Source of the DNA: a virus | Lineage: Duplodnaviria > Caudoviricetes | DNA: 64,000 nucleotides | Virus record (IMG/VR): IMGVR_UViG_3300049458_000012 | Location: 1-64,000 of that record | Strand: one strand, 5' to 3' | Shown: in pieces, positions 55,837-64,000 of the stretch | How positions within the stretch are numbered: the first letter of the stretch is position 1 | Layout of the letters: every line of letters starts with the position of its first letter | The notes under the pieces: generated by a model | Told to the model about the DNA's origin: nothing | The model's input: the letters and a program-made list of their open reading frames with translations, nothing else | The model's database searches: none | Made by a program: the position numbers and the translations under genes

Positions 55837-56252
55837 TGGCGCGCACCCATGCGCAAGCATTGCGTGAACTCCGCCCAGTCAACGTGATTGCGCCAAAATT
55901 GGCTCGCTTTCGCGAGCAGTACCGTTTGCGTCGAGTGGGGCTTATCGACGTTGTGCACCGCATGGTACGTATTGAAGAGCAGATACTCTCGGCCCACCCG
56001 CACGAAAAGCCAGCCTCTACGAAACTTTAAAAAGAGCCGCTGCAGGTCCTCCAATCCAAACTCCGCAGGCGTCGTGGCTCGATGTGGCCACTTGTCTAGT
56101 GCCTTCAGCTCAATCCAAATATTGCCCGCTCCCGGGAGCCAAGCGCTAAGGTCCGCGATGCCCGCGGTGAATCCGTCTGCGTGTTTCACGGGCCACTGCC
56201 ATCGCGACTCCATCCCGCCCAAGACGTAATCAACTAGGGTTCGCTCAGCCAT
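55833..56252 (-). CDS. PD-(D/E)xK nuclease (VRR-NUC / Holliday junction resolvase-like)
   Basis: AGIADL...WIELK motif. Confidence 0.7.
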   Translation of the reverse strand: MAERTLVDYVLGGMESRWQWPVKHADGFTAGIADLSAWLPGAGNIWIELKALDKWPHRATTPAEFGLEDLQRLFLKFRRGWLFVRVGREYLLFNTYHAVHNVDKPHSTQTVLLAKASQFWRNHVDWAEFTQCLRMGARQ

Positions 56253-58942
56253 TTTGTGCGCTCCACTTGCAGCATATTGAAGTCAGTCACCACCTTCCCC
56301 GTCACCACCATCCACTGCCCGATCGGCGCCCGCTCCACGATCGGCGCCCCGAGCGTTGCATATCGTTTCGCATTCACGCAACACAACACCCGGCCCGAGT
56401 CGTCCTCCAAGTTGAAGAGCAGCATGTCCCGCATGTTGTCGGGGACTCGTTTGCCTTTGCGCTTGACGAGATACTTCTCATCATTCAAGTCGCGCAGATT
56501 CTTCTTAATGATGCGCCCGAGGACCGCGAATTGTTGCATCGGATTGCCCGCCACAACGCTCGCACACTCGTGCAGCTCGCGTACGGTTTTGAAGTGTTTC
56601 TCCGGGTGCGCATACAGATCGCCCCAGATCCGATGGGCAGGGGCGTAGTCTGCGAACCGGGAGACCCCCGCCAGCAGTGTCTTGTGCCGGGCGCTGAGGG
56701 CGATGCCGTTGGCGCGACGAATGCAGATCTCCCGCGCGGTCTTCGGGCCACACCCCTTCAACCCGGTGAGAGGGCCGAGCAGCCGTTTGCCTTCGAACTC
56801 CCACCGCTCGGTGCTCTTCTCCGGGTCCACCGGCACGAACTCTATGCCGCTGCTCTCTCGCATCAACTCCCGCAACGTGCCGAGTGTGGAATCACTCTCC
56901 CCGGTGGAGGCTTTCGCGTGCCGAAGGTTGGCCACCGCGAATTCCAACGGGTGATGCGCCTTCAACCACGCGGTCCAATACGACAACAGCCCATAGGCCA
57001 CGGCGTGCGACTTGTTGAAGGCCCATGAACCCATCGTGTTGACGGACTTCCAAACCTTCTCCGCATCCGTAGCGGCCAGCCCCTTCGCCTGCGAGGCAGC
57101 AATGAACTGCTTTTCATACTTGGCGAATGCCTCATTGCCTTTTCGCCCCGACATCACCTTGCGGATCGCGGATGTATCGGCCCATGAAAAATCCCCCATC
57201 TCGCGCACCACGCGCATGACGGTTTCCTGATAGATGATCGTGCCGAACGTCTCTTCAGTGAAGGGCCCGAGCGCGGGGTGCAGCGGGTTATTGGTGCCGG
57301 TGTTCTTCCCCTTCACCCATCGTTCCGTCTCCCCCGAGGACAACGGCCCCGGGCGGGCGAGCGCCGTCACAGCGGCCACGTCCTCGAAGCGATCAATAGT
57401 GAATTGGCGGGCGACGCTTTGCAGCGCGATGCCTTCGAATTGAAACACCCCGGAGTACTTGCCCGCATTCAACATATCGAAGGTATCTTGGTCCTCCAGC
57501 GGCAGCTCATACAAACTCAACGGATCGATCCCGATCAACCCACACGCCTCCTCGATCACGGAGAGCGTCCGCAGGCCCAACGCATCGATCTTCAGGAGGT
57601 TGATAGTCTCCGCGGTCTTCTTCTCCAGCTGACAGGCCCCGTCCCGCACGCCACAAAATTCATTCACCGGTGCATTGCAAACCACGATCCCTGCGGCATG
57701 GATGCCTGCCGAGCGCGCATGATCTTCGAGCCGCGTGGCGACCCTCAGCAACGGATACTTCGCCACCAAGGCCCTGCCCACCTCCATGCCGTCCAACGAG
57801 TCCGCCAGACACGCACTCGCCCGCGCGTCTCCGGAGGATCGTTCAATCATGACGTCCTTCAACTGATCCAGCTCGAAGAGGGGGACGTTGGCCACCTTGG
57901 CAACATCCGTCAATGCGGAGCGTGGCTTGTAACGGATCACCGTGCCGATGTGAGCGACGTTGGCCGCCCCATACTTTTCTCGCAGATATTCGATCACGGC
58001 TTCACGCTTGACGTCGGGGAAGTCAATGTCAATATCGGGGAGGTCCGCGCGGTTGACGTCAATGAAGCGCTCGAAGATGAGCCCATGGCGCAACGGGTCG
58101 ATCTCCGTGATGCGGGTAAGCCAACACACGACCGAGCCCGCGGAACTTCCGCGCGCGGGGCCCACAAGCATGGAGCGCTTCGCGAATTGCAGCAGGTCCG
58201 CGATCACTAGGAAGTAATCCGCAAACTTCTTCTCCGCGATCAACCGCAGCTCATATTCCAACCGGGTCTTGTACTCCTTGCCGAGCTTTCGGCGGCGCAG
58301 CTCCGCGGTGGCCAGGGCCTTCAATTCGGCGTCCGGGTCTTTCACCGGGAATTTAATATTCTCGGCCCTGGGCAGCGGCGTGTCGCACCGCTCGATGAGG
58401 GCTTTGAGCCTCTCAATCCAAGGCGCCAGCGCCCCTTCCGCAATCAGTTCCTCGGGACTAAGGATGTGGGCGGAGCCGGTACGGGTGCGGGCGGCTTTCC
58501 CCAGCATGAGGGCCCATGCCTGGGCGTCCTCGGGGGCCGGGAAGAGATTGTCCGAGGAAGCGATCGAGGTCGCCTCGCTGGCCAGCGACAGCCCCGGGAA
58601 GAAGCCCTGGAGGGCCTTGGGGAGCGAGGTTCGGCCCGCGGTGACCACGGTCCAATCCGCACCCCCCGCGCGCTCGGGTGTCAATGCGCCTGCCGCGATC
58701 GTGGCATATAGCTCCTTCAGTCCCGCGGGGGAGTGAGGGATGACGATCGCCGGACGGCCTTCATATTGGAACCGGGCGCCGAGGACGCCGTGCTTACCCG
58801 CTTTCTTACACTCGGTGGCGAAGTCCACGTGCCCCCAACAGTTGTTGTCCGCGATCACCCCGCCCCACGCGGGCAGGCGGGCCACGACCTCTTTTATAGG
58901 GCCGAAGACCGCGCGGAAAGAATACTCAGATCGGACGATCAT
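56234..58942 (-). CDS. dnaE: DNA polymerase III alpha subunit (family C)
   Basis: GPARGSSAGS, FERFI...DLPDIDIDF, HAAGIV, KIDALGLRTL, FNKSHAVAY; degenerate PHP domain; C-terminal OB fold. Confidence 0.95.
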   Translation of the reverse strand: MIVRSEYSFRAVFGPIKEVVARLPAWGGVIADNNCWGHVDFATECKKAGKHGVLGARFQYEGRPAIVIPHSPAGLKELYATIAAGALTPERAGGADWTVVTAGRTSLPKALQGFFPGLSLASEATSIASSDNLFPAPEDAQAWALMLGKAARTRTGSAHILSPEELIAEGALAPWIERLKALIERCDTPLPRAENIKFPVKDPDAELKALATAELRRRKLGKEYKTRLEYELRLIAEKKFADYFLVIADLLQFAKRSMLVGPARGSSAGSVVCWLTRITEIDPLRHGLIFERFIDVNRADLPDIDIDFPDVKREAVIEYLREKYGAANVAHIGTVIRYKPRSALTDVAKVANVPLFELDQLKDVMIERSSGDARASACLADSLDGMEVGRALVAKYPLLRVATRLEDHARSAGIHAAGIVVCNAPVNEFCGVRDGACQLEKKTAETINLLKIDALGLRTLSVIEEACGLIGIDPLSLYELPLEDQDTFDMLNAGKYSGVFQFEGIALQSVARQFTIDRFEDVAAVTALARPGPLSSGETERWVKGKNTGTNNPLHPALGPFTEETFGTIIYQETVMRVVREMGDFSWADTSAIRKVMSGRKGNEAFAKYEKQFIAASQAKGLAATDAEKVWKSVNTMGSWAFNKSHAVAYGLLSYWTAWLKAHHPLEFAVANLRHAKASTGESDSTLGTLRELMRESSGIEFVPVDPEKSTERWEFEGKRLLGPLTGLKGCGPKTAREICIRRANGIALSARHKTLLAGVSRFADYAPAHRIWGDLYAHPEKHFKTVRELHECASVVAGNPMQQFAVLGRIIKKNLRDLNDEKYLVKRKGKRVPDNMRDMLLFNLEDDSGRVLCCVNAKRYATLGAPIVERAPIGQWMVVTGKVVTDFNMLQVERTKWLSEP

Positions 58943-59127
58943 GATTTTTCGATTTCCTCCCAATCCCACTCTGCAACCGCTTCGATGGAGATGCGTGCGG
59001 TGCTTACAGCAATCACTGCCGTTTGTACCGCGGCGGCAGAGTCGTAATCTCCATCCTTGTTGAGGAGCGTTACAACACGCACCAAGTCCGCTTCCATGGC
59101 ACGCATATGGGAATCAAGCGATTTCAC
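58939..59127 (-). CDS. Small hypothetical protein
   Basis: 62 aa; coupled to dnaE. Confidence 0.5.
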   Translation of the reverse strand: MKSLDSHMRAMEADLVRVVTLLNKDGDYDSAAAVQTAVIAVSTARISIEAVAEWDWEEIEKS

Positions 59128-59419: not shown

Positions 59420-59797
59420 TTATGCCCACACCGGGAAAAAGGTGAACTGTTCCGGCTCCGTGAACAATTCCCCGTGCCACTCGCACCAGTGGTTGGACTT
59501 CCGGGCATTGGGCCCTGCCAGGAGGATTTGCAAGTTGGCCGGAATATTGAGCCCGCATACCCGTTTGTGCGTGAGCGGGATGATGTGGTCCAAAACGTAT
59601 TGCTTGCCCGTTTGTTCAGTTTTCTCCTTCGCCAACTTTCCGAGTCGGCGCAACTCGGCCAAATTGACCCAGGGAGGTGTCGCCATGACGCATTGCACGA
59701 TGTAGCTGCGGCGCGGGTGCTTCGTAAGCCACGCAGGTTCCTCCCCTTTCAGCAGCCGCCCGCGAAGTTTGAAGTTGGAATATCGCAGCACCGTCAT
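59420..59797 (-). CDS. HNH endonuclease
   Basis: VLDHIIPL....VCGLNIPANLQIL...N.RKSN; ATG 59797. Confidence 0.85.
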   Translation of the reverse strand: MTVLRYSNFKLRGRLLKGEEPAWLTKHPRRSYIVQCVMATPPWVNLAELRRLGKLAKEKTEQTGKQYVLDHIIPLTHKRVCGLNIPANLQILLAGPNARKSNHWCEWHGELFTEPEQFTFFPVWA

Positions 59798-60174
59798 TAC
59801 TCCTCCAGCAGCAACGATTTGTAAGGGGCGTGCGATCGCTTTTCGAAACGCACTGGAGCCGTCTTGAGCATCTCCAGCGCCAGCTCCCCGGAGCAATAAG
59901 CTACGAGATGGCCGTGAGCCTTTTGAAAAAAGAAATAAGCGTCTCCAGCATGTTTCGGGGTGCAATGATCCGCGGCATCCACGTCCAACCGGATGCCGCG
60001 GGATCGATATCGCTCGTAATCAGAAAACTGCACCACGCAACGTCGCCCATCTTCGAGGAAATAAAAGTAAGCCCCTCCATTGGTGTCGGGGATCTCTTCG
60101 ATACGGATCACGAGGGATGCCAACCGATCGGCCACGATGTGTTCAGGCAGTTGGACCATTGCATGCATGTTCAT
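59797..60174 (-). CDS. Hypothetical protein
   Basis: 125 aa; GAGG RBS. Confidence 0.55.
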   Translation of the reverse strand: MNMHAMVQLPEHIVADRLASLVIRIEEIPDTNGGAYFYFLEDGRRCVVQFSDYERYRSRGIRLDVDAADHCTPKHAGDAYFFFQKAHGHLVAYCSGELALEMLKTAPVRFEKRSHAPYKSLLLEE

Positions 60175-60209: not shown

Positions 60210-60719
60210 TTAGAGCGTTTTCCAACACTCGATTAGCCTCCGCACGTCATCCAACGCCCTGTGCGTTTGTGCCACGAAGGCGTCCGCCTTGATCACCTCC
60301 CGGCTCCAGTTCTCCAACTTCTTCCCGCCGCTGAGTGGCACCGTGTCGATCTGTTTCGAGGCGTAAGGGAAGCGGTGCTCCCAACCGCATCGACGCAGCT
60401 CGAACACGAGGCACCCTGCATCGAAGGGGTGATTGTGTGCCACGGAGGAGTTGTCCGGATCGGAGCGCCAGAAGTCGATAATCTCGGGCAACTTGGTGAC
60501 GAACTTCGGCGCCCCCACTAAGTCCCCGTCCGTCAGTCCGGTGATCTTCGTGATGATGGCCGGGAGGGCCATGCCGGGGGAGAAGAGAGAAGTGAACGTG
60601 GCGCGTTCTTCACCATTCACCAGCAACACGGCAGCTAACTCAATGATGCGCGGCTGTTGTTTCGGATCTTCGATCCCGGGCAGCAGCAGGCCCGTTGTTT
60701 CTGTGTCCCAAAAAATCAT
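60210..60719 (-). CDS. dnaQ: DEDDh 3'-5' exonuclease (DNA polymerase III epsilon-like)
   Basis: DTETTG, AHNHPFD, HRALDDV. Confidence 0.9.
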   Translation of the reverse strand: MIFWDTETTGLLLPGIEDPKQQPRIIELAAVLLVNGEERATFTSLFSPGMALPAIITKITGLTDGDLVGAPKFVTKLPEIIDFWRSDPDNSSVAHNHPFDAGCLVFELRRCGWEHRFPYASKQIDTVPLSGGKKLENWSREVIKADAFVAQTHRALDDVRRLIECWKTL

Positions 60720-60955
60720 GGCATCGTCTCCGGTAATTTAGCGAAATACATAACTCCATGCCATTCGGCATCCTCAGCATCCAATCCAAACTCCCCGTAT
60801 TCGTGTAACCGCCAATGTTCTCCATTTGCATCGGTTTTCCACCGCACGCACACCATGGGGACGTTCTTGTCGTCCAGCGTCAGCACCGCCTCATCATAAT
60901 CGGGCAACGGCTCCGGACCGCCCACGGGGTGAAAGGTCAAGGTGAGTGCGTTCAT
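60716..60955 (-). CDS. Hypothetical protein (DUF551-like)
   Basis: EPLPD...VL....W....V.YFAKLP pattern. Confidence 0.5.
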   Translation of the reverse strand: MNALTLTFHPVGGPEPLPDYDEAVLTLDDKNVPMVCVRWKTDANGEHWRLHEYGEFGLDAEDAEWHGVMYFAKLPETMP

Positions 60956-61461
60956 CCCTCGAACACCTCTCTCCACCGCAGCCCCTCTTCGAGCGTGAGC
61001 CGCTGAATCAACTTCAGCTCCGCTCCAATCATTGCCCGGGTGTTCAGGATGATGTACCGGTAGCGCCGGTCTGCGCAGCGTGCGTTGGTATGTTCGATCG
61101 TCACGACCTCCTGCAACGTTTTGTAATTACGCTTCCACTCCTCGATGGCCCCGGAGTCTTGCAGGTGCATGCCGAAGTGAGAGGTGTGCACGCAGTCGCA
61201 TTGTAGCCAATCCAACCGGTGCCAGTTCCACCCATCGATGTACGTGAGTACCTCGTGCTCCAGGCGATTGGGCCAAACGTTATAAGTGAAGGACAGTTCC
61301 GCTTTGTTGCGGATGCGCTTGCCTTCATCATCGAACCCAACCGCGGTCACCGTGTCCATGGCATCGAAGCTAGCGCCACCCATCTGGAAGAAGTGGCGAG
61401 CTTTCGTGTGCGTGGCCATGTCAGGGGTGACGATGGCGATTTGATCTAGTTGTATTTTCAC
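60952..61461 (-). CDS. Glyoxalase / VOC-fold-like protein
   Basis: LDQIAIVT, EHEVLTY, SHFGMH, ELKLIQRL beta-alpha-beta-beta-beta pattern with possible metal ligands Q/E/H. Confidence 0.55.
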   Translation of the reverse strand: MKIQLDQIAIVTPDMATHTKARHFFQMGGASFDAMDTVTAVGFDDEGKRIRNKAELSFTYNVWPNRLEHEVLTYIDGWNWHRLDWLQCDCVHTSHFGMHLQDSGAIEEWKRNYKTLQEVVTIEHTNARCADRRYRYIILNTRAMIGAELKLIQRLTLEEGLRWREVFEG

Positions 61462-62000
61462 GAGTTGACTCCATCGGTGCGGGAATGAATCTGCACGGCC
61501 ATGATGCAGTAGTTGGCCATGTCTCGGTAGGATTCCAGCAGCCCTGCATCATCCTTCCGGAGGAGTTGCTGCCGCAGCCGGATGTATTTCCGATGCACAT
61601 CGGAGAACAGCATCCAGCGGTTGAATTCAGCATCCGTCTCCTCGTAGCGGGACTCCCCATACTCGATGCACTTTTCGAGCCGGATGTAAGCGAGTGAGGA
61701 AAGCGTTATTTCGAACTCGACGTGATACTTGAGCCCCTTCAGCTCCGCACTCACGAGGCGATCTGCGAGTGCCTTTTGCACAGAATATTTGAAGGGAGCG
61801 CCAGGCGGCTCACGGATAAGGGGCAGCTGAGCCTTCGCATCCAGCAGCGTAACGCCAACCAGTTGCCGAGCCAAGTTGAAAACTAACTCGGTTCCGCCAT
61901 TATGAATAGAAGCCACCCGGTGCGTTGTTCCGCCGTCCCCCACATCATCCGCGATCTGAATAAACGCGGTGTTGTGCTCTTTGTCGTGAGTAACTTTCAT
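61458..62000 (-). CDS. DUF2283-like N-terminus fused to a nucleotide-modification-associated domain 1 (Nmad1/DUF1599)-like helical domain
   Basis: MKVTHDKEHNTAFIQI (DUF2283-like); EK..EYGES, RKYIRL, ESYRDMANYCIMA (DUF1599-like). Confidence 0.6.
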   Translation of the reverse strand: MKVTHDKEHNTAFIQIADDVGDGGTTHRVASIHNGGTELVFNLARQLVGVTLLDAKAQLPLIREPPGAPFKYSVQKALADRLVSAELKGLKYHVEFEITLSSLAYIRLEKCIEYGESRYEETDAEFNRWMLFSDVHRKYIRLRQQLLRKDDAGLLESYRDMANYCIMAVQIHSRTDGVNS

Positions 62001-62725
62001 CCCTGCGGCCCTCCATACGGGAAGACGCACCCCGTAATGAAGGGGTGGTGCACCGGGCGCATCAGCTCCGCGATGAAAGCGGCCAGGGCCTGTGGTGGGG
62101 TCTCGACGCCCGCGGGCAGTGCTGCGAGTTGATAGCGCTTCGCCTCCTCGGGCGTCCAGCCTCGCATGTCGCACACTGCGGCTTCAATTTCGCGGCTCAT
62201 TGGCGTGCCCGCGAGCTTGTTGGGGTTGACGGCGAATATGCAGTAGTCCTTCAACTCCCGGGCCATCTGCCGCGTGATCATCTCGGCGGCTGCCTTGGAA
62301 GCGTTGTACGCGAGTGAGTGTGTCATCGGGATGTGCGCCGCGTTGCTCACCACGTTGCAGATGGCGGCCCCCTTCGCCAACAGCCCTTGGGATCGTAGCT
62401 CCCGCACCACCCACACCAACGCGAACGCATTGACCTGCATCAGCTCTTCGAGCGCGTCCAAATGCAATCCGCTGAATGGCAGCAACAAATTTGCCCCTGC
62501 GCAATTGATCAGCCGAGTGACCGCCATCGGCAACTGCCCAGCGGCGCTATCGATAGATGGGAAATCGATGAGATTCACCCCGGTCTCATTCGACCAATTG
62601 ACGGCCCCTGGGAAATGCGCCATCACCACCCTCCCGAGCCCTCCCGAACCGCCAAGGATGAGCGTATCACGGCATTGCCGCGGTTGCTCTTCCGAGGCGC
62701 AATCTTGCATATAGTCACGAGTCAT
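61997..62725 (-). CDS. Short-chain dehydrogenase/reductase
   Basis: GGSGGLG, NCAG, VNA, SNAA, YNASK (complete N-S-Y-K tetrad). Confidence 0.9.
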   Translation of the reverse strand: MTRDYMQDCASEEQPRQCRDTLILGGSGGLGRVVMAHFPGAVNWSNETGVNLIDFPSIDSAAGQLPMAVTRLINCAGANLLLPFSGLHLDALEELMQVNAFALVWVVRELRSQGLLAKGAAICNVVSNAAHIPMTHSLAYNASKAAAEMITRQMARELKDYCIFAVNPNKLAGTPMSREIEAAVCDMRGWTPEEAKRYQLAALPAGVETPPQALAAFIAELMRPVHHPFITGCVFPYGGPQG

Positions 62726-62763
62726 TTCATGTTCCTTAAAAGTTTGTTTATGGGGGCAGCGAA

Positions 62764-63207
62764 CTAAAAGTCACCCGGGGCGACCTGCGCACAAGTGATC
62801 CCACGACGGCGCCACATCGCGACAACCTTGTCGCGATCGTCAAACACTATGTCGATTTTGCGACCGTTGGCGAGTGCTTCGTCCAACCACTTCATCTTCA
62901 ACTCGTCATCCGGGGTGTAGTCCCCCGTCGCCCGCATGCGCAAAAGGATGCCATAGGAGTCGATGTAAGGGGCGTGCTTCAAAAACCAATGGCGAGTCTC
63001 TTTGCGCACGGACTCTTCCCGCCCGCTCCAGATCTGCACCTCGTGGTTGGTGCGCACCATGGAATAAAGGACCTTGAGCACCGCGGGCTTCGGCGTGTCT
63101 TGCACGCAGGCCTTATAGAAGGCGGTCCAATCGGAACGTGGTGCTGTCACCAAGTGCCTGCGATGTTCAATATCGCACAGCGTGCCGTCGAGATCGAAAA
63201 TGATCAT
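62764..63207 (-). CDS. HAD phosphatase (polynucleotide kinase 3'-phosphatase-like)
   Basis: DLDGTL, SGR, LRMR..GD..PDDELK, FDDR. Confidence 0.88.
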   Translation of the reverse strand: MIIFDLDGTLCDIEHRRHLVTAPRSDWTAFYKACVQDTPKPAVLKVLYSMVRTNHEVQIWSGREESVRKETRHWFLKHAPYIDSYGILLRMRATGDYTPDDELKMKWLDEALANGRKIDIVFDDRDKVVAMWRRRGITCAQVAPGDF

Positions 63208-63223
63208 TGTGCTTTACCCTTTT

Positions 63224-64000
63224 TTAAAATGGAAGGTCATCGAAATGGCTGCAGTCTTCCCCGTGCTCTCCGTCTTGGCCGCCACACTCGTCACAGGCCA
63301 CCTCCACCGGAACAACCACCTCCACCGCCATGCCGTCCTTCGCAACCGGCGCCGCATAATGGCGACGGGTCCAAAAGAGCATCTTTGCCTGCTCACGGAC
63401 GTATGAATTTTCCATCGCGGGCAGATAGACAGGACACTCCGCTTTCCCGTACCGCGGGAACGCACAGGTGCCTTCCGAGACGCAGTGCACCTGGATGAAG
63501 TCTTCGGCCCACGGGTGCACCTCGATCACCGCAGCTCGCATCGCGCGCATGACGTCCTGATACTCGCCCGTCACCCGGGTGCAAAGGCGCACCTTCGCCG
63601 TGTCGTGGAGCGTGCGAAGGTTCCACTTCGCCATGATGTTCGTGAGGACGTTGGTCGGCAGTAATCCACGGGCATCTTGCACCGGCACACCGTCATCAAC
63701 CAACGCGCCATAAGCGGATTTCACCCCATCCACTTTTTCATTCCAAACTTCCATACGCACATCGTGATCCCTCACACTCTCCGGCATCAACACTTCCGCA
63801 TGCCGCGCATCAATCACGCGCATGGACTGCTGAGCGTAAGACCCTATGCGTGTGCGTACGAACTCGTGGGTGAAGGCGCGCGTCACACCCTCGATCTGGA
63901 ACACGTAATCGATGAACTCCCAGGAGGACTTGATGCTTTGCAGCATGTAGTTCAAGTGCTCGCGCTTCTTCTCCTCCGTCCACCCCACGGGGTCTTCCTC
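63224..64000 (-). CDS. thyX: Flavin-dependent thymidylate synthase (ThyX-like), 5'-truncated by the window
   Basis: WEF....F.IEGVTRAFTHEFVRTR..SYAQQSMR, QDARGLLPTN, NLRTL; the frame stays open to the window end. Confidence 0.85.
   Translation of the reverse strand, partial: EEDPVGWTEEKKREHLNYMLQSIKSSWEFIDYVFQIEGVTRAFTHEFVRTRIGSYAQQSMRVIDARHAEVLMPESVRDHDVRMEVWNEKVDGVKSAYGALVDDGVPVQDARGLLPTNVLTNIMAKWNLRTLHDTAKVRLCTRVTGEYQDVMRAMRAAVIEVHPWAEDFIQVHCVSEGTCAFPRYGKAECPVYLPAMENSYVREQAKMLFWTRRHYAAPVAKDGMAVEVVVPVEVACDECGGQDGEHGEDCSHFDDLPF

Follow-up and report, generated by a model that had tools for sequence, protein, structure and literature searches.

A cluster of nucleotide-enzyme genes in a phage replication operon

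We analyzed a gene cluster in a 64,000-nucleotide stretch of viral DNA (hereafter the window), which comprises bases 1-64000 of the 75,424-bp IMG/VR record IMGVR_UViG_3300049458_000012 (Caudoviricetes). The cluster encodes a homologue of the flavin-dependent thymidylate synthase ThyX, a phosphatase of the HAD family, a short-chain dehydrogenase/reductase (SDR), a protein with a domain resembling Nmad1 (p4), and an enzyme of the vicinal oxygen chelate (VOC) fold (p5). It shares an operon region with genes for a DnaQ-like exonuclease and a DnaE-type DNA polymerase (Table 1). A preliminary description of this DNA had taken the five genes as a single set that could make a non-canonical nucleotide, with a dedicated family-C polymerase to incorporate it.

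All five open reading frames (ORFs) are present on the minus strand where the preliminary description placed them, and the names it gave them are mostly correct. Seven genes on this strand, from that of the ThyX-like enzyme through those of the HAD phosphatase, the SDR, p4, p5, an 86-aa protein and the DnaQ-like exonuclease, are packed between positions 64079 and 60210. The intergenic gaps, in order from ThyX through dnaQ, are 16, 38, -7, -4, -25 and -4 nt, in keeping with the earlier statement that the genes are mostly translationally coupled. The cluster had also been described as lying directly upstream of dnaQ and dnaE. The operon region is indeed the same, but the 86-aa ORF, which matches nothing in Pfam or PHROG, precedes dnaQ, and dnaE follows dnaQ only after ~1.2 kb of small ORFs. 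The DnaE in the window is 37-43% identical to the DnaE proteins of the phages Pluto, Hera and PA5 and of IMG/VR relatives, in which the gene order is alike.

Table 1. Genes of the operon and its surroundings. Coordinates are those of the IMG/VR record; positions in L004 are given for genes beyond the window.
Gene product	Coordinates	Strand	Position in L004	Size	Basis or remark
DnaE-type DNA polymerase III alpha	56234..58969	(-)		911 aa	Backbone polymerase of the phage group
Small ORF between dnaQ and dnaE	59420-59965	(-)		181 aa	PHROG 26577, 5.3e-20
DnaQ-like 3'-5' exonuclease	60210..60719	(-)			Pfam RNase_T, 6e-21; PHROG 192
Small ORF between the VOC gene and dnaQ	60716..60976	(-)		86 aa	ORF only
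p5, VOC (glyoxalase/methylmalonyl-CoA epimerase-like) fold enzyme	60952..61461	(-)		169 aa	Profile and model
p4, weakly DUF2283-like N terminus and Nmad1 (DUF1599)-like helical domain	61458..62003	(-)		181 aa
SDR, classical type	61997..62725	(-)		242 aa	adh_short
Stand-alone HAD phosphatase, polynucleotide kinase (PNK)-phosphatase type	62764..63207	(-)		147 aa	Pfam HAD_PNKP; PHROG 415/505
ThyX-like flavin-dependent thymidylate synthase homologue	63224..64000 (start at 64079, outside the window)	(-)		284 aa (258 aa in the window)	Pfam Thy1
YAcAr/YspA SLOG-family protein	64075-64440	(-)	L004:4076-4441	121 aa	PF10686, 6.6e-17
up360	64453-65535	(-)	L004:4454-5536	360 aa	Conserved upstream of ThyX
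DUF932 protein			L004:8443-9504	353 aa	1.2e-8

A conserved backbone and an accessory unit

The gene order up360-ThyX-(PNK/HAD)-SDR-(variable slot)-VOC-DnaQ-DnaE is found in 16 of the 16 IMG/VR loci that we retrieved with an alignment of the VOC family, and the same order is seen in Luteibacter phage Pluto, Serratia phage Hera (Myosmarvirus) and E. coli phage Bas98, to whose proteins p5 is 31-34% and the SDR 44% identical. The VOC gene is present in 50 isolate records, among them Wifcevirus and Myosmarvirus and phages of Pantoea, Erwinia, Aeromonas, Xanthomonas, Xylella and Luteibacter; none of these 50 records comes from Pseudomonas. A search with the SDR matched 88 records, which include the host genera of the VOC records. 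The product of up360 has no sequence match in Pfam, NCBIfam or PDB, and its gene is kept upstream of ThyX in every PB1-like locus, including that of Pbunavirus, at 32-40% identity. In the annotation of Hera, the up360 homologue bears the label "galactopyranose", which is unconfirmed.

Pbunavirus PA5 encodes ThyX, a small ORF, PNK, DnaQ and DnaE, and has neither the SDR nor the VOC gene. It carries all four of the genes (for ThyX, a PNK-type phosphatase, DnaE and DnaQ) that the preliminary description had reported to occur together in PB1-like phages. Because PA5 dispenses with SDR and VOC, ThyX and HAD are part of the operon backbone, and the SDR and VOC genes are an accessory pair. The idea of one five-gene set therefore holds insofar as the genes are conserved together, but only SDR, VOC and Nmad1 are accessory.

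The slot between SDR and VOC holds the Nmad1-like gene in the window and small ORFs in other loci. In one PB1-like IMG/VR contig it is occupied by a radical SAM/SPASM enzyme and an FkbM-type methyltransferase (L008:5176-6856), and in another locus by a DUF6378 protein (L010:1122-1538; 8.2e-26), a helical phage domain with a motif layout like that of Nmad1. Such changing contents look like those of a variable tailoring cluster. A hidden Markov model (HMM) detected no Nmad1-like gene between SDR and VOC in the 16 PB1-like IMG/VR loci, where other genes occupy the gap. Likewise, PF07659, the Pfam family of Nmad1, is absent from the complete genomes of Pluto, Hera, Bas98, PA5 and RikSengupta, and tblastn with p4 against 50,697 phage records gave no match.

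Beyond these loci, the accessory genes appear in several other settings. Locus L022 has the order up360-ThyX-SDR-Nmad1-VOC-DnaE, in which the Nmad1 and VOC ORFs are neighbors that overlap. In L023, which is not PB1-like, ThyX is accompanied by the three genes in another order, VOC-Nmad1-SDR, among genes for a PD-(D/E)XK nuclease, AAA_24, DUF669 and a PolA-type exonuclease. Microbacterium phage RikSengupta encodes an FAD-type oxidoreductase, HAD, SDR, VOC (family HMM, 5.8e-46), a helical protein and DnaE, and Gordonia phage Gibbin encodes HAD, an Nmad-like helical protein, a methyltransferase, SDR, DnaE, MazG and ThyX. In 18 further viral loci, many of which are near-identical, a stand-alone Nmad1-like gene is found immediately upstream of a ThyX gene. 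To judge from these sequences, SDR, VOC and Nmad1 appear to form a unit that moves between replication modules. The preliminary description had itself raised the objection that these genes might not co-occur in other phages; in fact genes of the set recur together in the 16 IMG/VR loci, in isolates and in other modules, and since co-occurrence is conserved in this way, the grouping is not a product of chance. Our search of the literature on ThyX with SDR and glyoxalase in phages, and on Nmad1, found nothing relevant.

Properties of the accessory proteins

The SDR matches adh_short (PF00106) at 5.3e-19 (68.9 bits; cut-off 26.6) and has the motifs GGSGGLG at residues 25-31 and INCAG at 73-77. 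Its catalytic tetrad (N99/S127/Y140/K144) is intact, as had been claimed for it. The protein is 44% identical to gp58 of Hera; among proteins of solved structure, L-xylulose and carbonyl reductases come nearest to it (~1e-9). It reaches no NCBIfam equivalog, the best score being 57.5 bits against a cut-off of 360. A search for long SDR fusions was negative, although this is weak evidence.

It is the last ~100 aa of p4 that resemble Nmad1; most homologues of this region either stand alone, at ~105 aa, or form the N-terminal part of Nmad1::VOC fusions. The protein itself scores below the gathering threshold for DUF1599 (PF07659, named "Nucleotide modification associated domain 1" in Pfam), at E 0.027 and 15.2 bits against 25. 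Its homologue P0022 carries PF07659, however, and the fusion P0033 passes at 28.5 bits, so we tentatively assign p4 to Nmad1 by transitive homology through these two proteins. Like Nmad1/DUF1599 proteins, the p4-type domain has three long helices and conserved motifs (YGExRY, DxxRKxIRL and DxANY) and often adjoins ThyX. It differs in its sub-threshold score and in an N-terminal extension of ~75 aa that is absent from all homologues. This extension covers all 49 model positions of DUF2283 (PF10049), at E 0.071 and 13.7 bits against a cut-off of 23. The name DUF2283::Nmad1-like protein, given to p4 in the preliminary description, accordingly finds support in its second half, by way of the relatives, and is weak in its first.

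A structural model of the Nmad1::VOC fusion P0019 (predicted local distance difference test (pLDDT) score, 94) aligns in its helical domain with AF_0060 (2p06_B) at Z 9.2 over 83 of 88 residues with 18% identity, well above the next matches, which cover two helices. We take AF_0060 to be placed by SCOP with the all-alpha nucleoside triphosphate (NTP) pyrophosphatases. The invariant acidic and basic residues of the Nmad1-like domain would suit a nucleotide site. A sequence search of PDB with the Nmad1-like profile returned no match. Fusions in which Nmad1 is the N-terminal domain account for 33 of the 155 VOC-family members examined, and the p4 and p5 genes in the window overlap by 4 nt; we consider p4 the probable split partner of p5.

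Although p5 has no Pfam match of its own, a profile search with its family gathered 504 cluster representatives at E<=1e-3, and some of these relatives pass Pfam Glyoxalase_4 (PF13669). An AlphaFold2 model built from a 113-sequence alignment (pLDDT, 97.1) has the order of strands and helices expected for VOC. Its best Foldseek match is 3gm5, a putative methylmalonyl-CoA epimerase (MCE), at 2.9e-8, followed by true MCE, with HPPD also among the matches. The family profile matches 3gm5 by sequence as well (6.9e-6), and the VOC domain of the fusion superimposes on 3gm5_A with Z 15.7 and a root-mean-square deviation of 2.2 A over 136 residues at 23% identity (VIA-align). Profile and model thus agree with the earlier naming of p5 as a VOC-fold protein.

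About twenty polar residues are near-invariant in the p5 family, including Q7, D36, E68, E70, Y74, H95, H99, Q117, T121, H124, N126, R132, Y134, Y136, K150 and R154, a pattern which argues that p5 is an enzyme and not a binding protein. In the model, Q7, E68/E70, H95/H99 and D/E148 (the last less conserved) fall on strands 1, 4, 5 and 8, the metal-ligand strands of VOC proteins. With the MCE/glyoxalase I branch, in which 3gm5 is its closest relative, p5 shares the paired beta-alpha-beta-beta-beta fold and polar residues at the four metal-ligand strand positions. It departs from that branch in having Gln for His on strand 1, ExE on strand 4 and extra invariant Arg, Tyr and Lys residues, and in that its family is fused to an Nmad1-like domain in relatives.

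The ThyX-like enzyme and the HAD phosphatase

The ThyX-like protein is a clear member of Pfam Thy1 (PF02511; 1.7e-33, 116.4 bits, cut-off 24.8) and falls just short of the NCBIfam thyX equivalog (TIGR02170), with 85.4 bits against 87.9. Its signature reads RTRIGSYAQQSMR, with RTR instead of RHR, and so departs from the canonical RHRxxSxxxxSxR. In a HMMER alignment with T. maritima ThyX, whose numbering here presumes a 12-residue tag in the PDB chain, H53, H79, E86 and Y91 are replaced by I, T, Q and V, respectively, and R78, R80, S83, S88 and R90 are retained; H53 and H79 are the histidines that lie close to the flavin and the folate. The preliminary description was right about both the likeness to ThyX and the RTR motif, but the motif is not specific to the cluster: it is present in 13 of 13 PB1-like ThyX sequences aligned, including that of PA5, which lacks SDR and VOC. 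As a property common to all of them, RTR is uninformative about the SDR/VOC cluster, and we rule it out as a marker of special chemistry there.

The neighboring protein is a HAD phosphatase, as previously named: it matches HAD_PNKP (PF25109) at 5.7e-30 (104.8 bits; cut-off 27.6) and begins MIIFDLDGT, with FDLDGT at residues 4-9 and the DxDGT nucleophile motif at 5-9. Its 147 aa contain no kinase domain, and it is therefore not a bifunctional kinase/phosphatase of the T4 PseT type. Relatives bear a C-terminal extension of 150-330 aa, in which there is no Pfam kinase match; we found no homologue of this extension in the present genome.

TG/CA-containing palindromes largely escape avoidance in six PB1-like genomes

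In the Pbunavirus phages F8 and 14-1, nucleosides with masses of 362 U and 390 U take the place of roughly one quarter of T, in TG context; these masses fit sugar-alcohol and circularised aldopentose derivatives of thymidine, respectively. F8 DNA resists five tested enzymes with TG-containing sites, and the modification has no genes assigned to it (Yee et al. 2025 preprint, PMC12191111). Protection of TG sites, where it exists, should spare TG/CA-containing restriction sites from counter-selection. We therefore compared the counts of all 64 6-bp palindromes with a maximal-order Markov expectation in six related genomes and eight control phages (lambda, T7, phiKMV, P22, T5, D3, Xp10 and F116), and scored as strongly avoided those with an observed-to-expected ratio below 0.35 and at least 5 copies expected.

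None of the strongly avoided palindromes contains TG/CA in the genome studied here (0/9), in Pluto (0/12), Hera (0/15) or Bas98 (0/10), or in a further IMG/VR relative, G002 (0/7), and a single one does in PA5 (1/13), which brings the six PB1-like genomes together to 1 of 66. The corresponding figure for the pooled controls is 21/78, and every control avoids at least one TG/CA palindrome, typically CAGCTG, CTGCAG, CCATGG or GTGCAC. The difference between the first five PB1-like genomes and the controls has p=3e-5 (G002 was scored later and is not included); for this genome alone, Fisher p is 0.02-0.04, varying with the cut-off on expected copies. Across all dinucleotides, TG/CA is the only one with a group-specific effect. 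This exemption of TG/CA among the avoided palindromes of PB1-like genomes is new here.

The nine palindromes avoided in this genome (CTCGAG, GAGCTC, GTCGAC, CGGCCG, GGATCC, GCCGGC, AAGCTT, AGGCCT and ACGCGT) have 0-4 copies each against 10-35 expected. The sets of avoided palindromes differ between genomes, so the exemption does not go back to one inherited event. Together, these statistics suggest that TG-context protection may be a trait of the whole PB1-like group, this phage included, and that its DNA may contain a TG-specific modified thymine.

Over the whole genome (window and L004), CTCGAG, GAGCTC and GTCGAC have 0 copies and CGGCCG has 1, against 10-35 expected, which points to strong restriction pressure from a GC-rich host; TA is strongly under-represented (odds ratio 0.52). 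The complete genome of Bas98 (L062) contains 18 GAATTC and 82 AGACC sites and only 3 GATATC sites. Bas98 is reported to be sensitive to EcoP1_I alone, which fits AGACC, presumably the EcoP1_I site, since this has no TG/CA on either strand.

Genes surrounding the cluster

The 181-aa ORF between dnaQ and dnaE has a weak relative right after DnaE in L011. Between up360 and ThyX, the genome carries the gene of the SLOG-family protein, at a position where relatives have unrelated small ORFs; SLOG domains bind nucleotides. A DUF932 protein is encoded upstream of the cluster. Just upstream of ThyX, locus L023 encodes a 369-aa protein (L023:2342-3451) that joins a weak all-alpha dUTPase_2-like domain to an NT5C-type 5'-deoxynucleotidase.

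A candidate role in thymidine hypermodification

On balance, our analysis suggests that the operon most likely serves TG-context thymidine hypermodification of the F8/14-1 type; we give this explanation as a whole a probability of about 0.42. In it, the locus represents that half of a replication operon, in a distant PB1-like myophage, which encodes nucleotide enzymes, and it is built in two layers. The backbone layer consists of the ThyX-like and HAD enzymes, which are shared with Pbunavirus, together with the conserved up360 outside the window; the accessory layer comprises the SDR and the VOC-fold enzyme, accompanied here by a separate Nmad1-like partner. The gene identities, folds, fusion, synteny and TG/CA signature are shown above; we infer that these genes take part in the modification, and likewise each of the chemical steps that follow.

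SDRs typically interconvert hydroxyl and keto groups, and the epimerases nearest to the VOC protein act via metal-stabilised enolates. With a sugar-like group that can enolise as substrate, the SDR, which depends on NAD(P), would carry out a keto/hydroxyl redox step and the metal-type VOC enzyme an epimerase or isomerase step. Before these steps, the Nmad1-like domain, with its helical fold resembling that of NTP pyrophosphatases, would bind or hydrolyse a nucleotide, and the HAD enzyme would take off a phosphate. In sum, SDR, VOC and Nmad1 may tailor or supply a sugar-derived side chain, with TG specificity set otherwise. We favor this role because the SDR is near xylulose and carbonyl reductases, the VOC protein is near epimerases, their partner is apparently nucleotide-binding, and enzymes of tailoring type occur in the slot between them.

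Two characterized systems offer points of comparison. With F8 and 14-1, the present phage shares its supergroup and an operon backbone of up360, RTR-type ThyX, HAD, DnaQ and DnaE, and the exemption of TG/CA from palindrome avoidance is common to PA5 and this genome. Unlike it, Pbunavirus lacks SDR, VOC and Nmad1, and the present phage is uncultivated. A known route to hypermodified thymidine reportedly proceeds via 5-hydroxymethyldeoxyuridine (5-hmdU), a DNA kinase and tailoring enzymes. The likeness to that route lies in a phage enzyme acting on pyrimidine C5 beside variable tailoring enzymes (radical SAM in some loci), and in the partial replacement of T. That route, however, begins with a hydroxymethylase of ThyA type and a 5-hmdU DNA kinase of P-loop type, whereas the pyrimidine enzyme here is of ThyX type and scans of the HAD genes revealed no kinase domain. 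None of the ORFs scanned near the cluster was seen to encode a ThyA-type dUMP hydroxymethylase, a 5-hmdU DNA kinase or an aGPT-Pplase transferase, although no dedicated search of the genome was made. To our knowledge, SDR and VOC enzymes are not part of known pathways of thymidine hypermodification.

Several observations weigh against the proposed role in hypermodification. TG specificity calls for a step at the level of DNA and is not accounted for by nucleotide-pool enzymes like ThyX. In PA5 the TG signature is just as strong, so the SDR/VOC pair is not needed for TG protection and can be at most a tailoring or precursor unit. Outside the PB1-like group, the SDR carrier Gibbin avoids CTGCAG and GTGCAC and thus lacks the TG/CA exemption, and RikSengupta and G001 each avoid CAGCTG, a result of low power that is ambiguous. 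SDR, VOC and Nmad1 do not, then, create TG protection. By its sequence, moreover, the SDR is generic, the match of the Nmad1-like model to AF_0060 is modest for a helical bundle, and the synteny among PB1-like phages may be mere co-inheritance with the replication module.

A more specific version of the proposal, which we consider improbable, is that the PB1-like ThyX derivative, in which the histidines on the folate and flavin sides are lost, goes beyond plain methylation of dUMP and starts a new route by placing a sugar-derived carbon chain onto C5 of uracil; SDR, VOC and Nmad1 would then set the oxidation state and stereochemistry of the chain or make its nucleotide-linked donor, and HAD would dephosphorylate its terminus. 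The calculated mass of deoxyuridine in which the C5 hydrogen is replaced by CH2(CHOH)3CH2OH is 362.3, and that of thymidine plus a pentose minus 2 H is 390.3; these values fit the reported 362 U and 390 U by arithmetic alone.

A serious rival, if on the whole an unlikely one, is that the genes serve ordinary dNTP-pool metabolism and that TG modification is performed by genes elsewhere. ThyX would make dTMP, the Nmad1-like protein would be a dUTP/dCTP pyrophosphatase that feeds dUMP, HAD a nucleotidase or 3'-phosphatase, and SDR and VOC would have a supporting function such as cofactor upkeep. The dUMP-binding arginines and serines of ThyX are retained in a protein that scores 116 bits on Pfam Thy1, the Nmad1-like genes next to ThyX in the 18 other viral loci and the fold resemblance to AF_0060 would suit such a pathway, as would the dUTPase_2::NT5C fusion in L023, and the independence of the TG signature from SDR and VOC also speaks for it. 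It gives no role, however, to a strongly conserved SDR and VOC pair in which the VOC family keeps about 20 polar residues near-invariant, and it leaves unexplained both the repeated Nmad1::VOC fusion and the radical SAM and methyltransferase genes in the SDR-VOC slot; nor does it account for the replacement of the H53, H79, E86 and Y91 equivalents in a ThyX that misses the equivalog cut-off. SDR and VOC could also be a protective pair, a carbonyl reductase with a glyoxalase- or bleomycin-resistance-like protein directed at reactive aldehydes or DNA-damaging small molecules, with no nucleotide chemistry at all. Such a function would agree with the nearest solved SDRs, with the presence of glyoxalase I and antibiotic-binding proteins in the VOC superfamily, and with the filing of the SDR under "moron, auxiliary metabolic gene" in databases. 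We judge it very unlikely given that the pair holds a fixed place in the replication operons of unrelated phages, that the fusion partner of VOC takes its name from loci of nucleotide modification, and that the closest VOC structures are epimerase-like enzymes and not binding proteins.

A fuller version of the idea in the preliminary description goes further than our proposal: the nucleotide made by the cluster would wholly replace a base and be incorporated by a dedicated family-C polymerase. In its favor, the genes adjoin dnaQ and dnaE, and SDR is adjacent to DnaE in actinophages as well. Nonetheless, this version has very little to recommend it to us: nine palindromes are nearly purged, so that most of the DNA outside TG sites appears open to restriction, and this speaks against wholesale replacement; in F8 and 14-1, moreover, the modified share of T is only about one quarter (Yee et al. 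2025, PMC12191111). As for the polymerase, DnaE is an ordinary backbone gene of the phage group, orthologous to the DnaE of Pbunavirus, which has neither SDR nor VOC, and the SDR/Nmad1/VOC trio also stands beside the PolA-type exonuclease in L023, so a family-C polymerase is not the only kind of partner; we reject a dedicated enzyme as unsupported. What survives of the earlier suggestion of a non-canonical nucleotide is a conserved, nucleotide-linked gene set in a phage with hypermodified relatives and a TG signature, though the signature is independent of SDR and VOC.

The proposed role in TG-context hypermodification bears on phages of practical interest. Pbunavirus members are among the most used therapeutic Pseudomonas phages, and their TG-specific hypermodified thymine was found only recently and has no genes assigned to it; Wifcevirus coliphages resist restriction with no known cause. 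Separating the operon backbone from SDR, VOC and Nmad1 gives a short list of candidate genes in culturable relatives, and the palindrome test offers a cheap predictor, requiring sequence only, of context-specific DNA protection in uncultivated phages. The Nmad1::VOC fusion family is an uncharacterised type of enzyme with a well-defined predicted active site. Should a ThyX-initiated route to a sugar chain at C5 prove true, it would constitute a new class of DNA hypermodification enzymology in hundreds of phages, therapeutic ones included.

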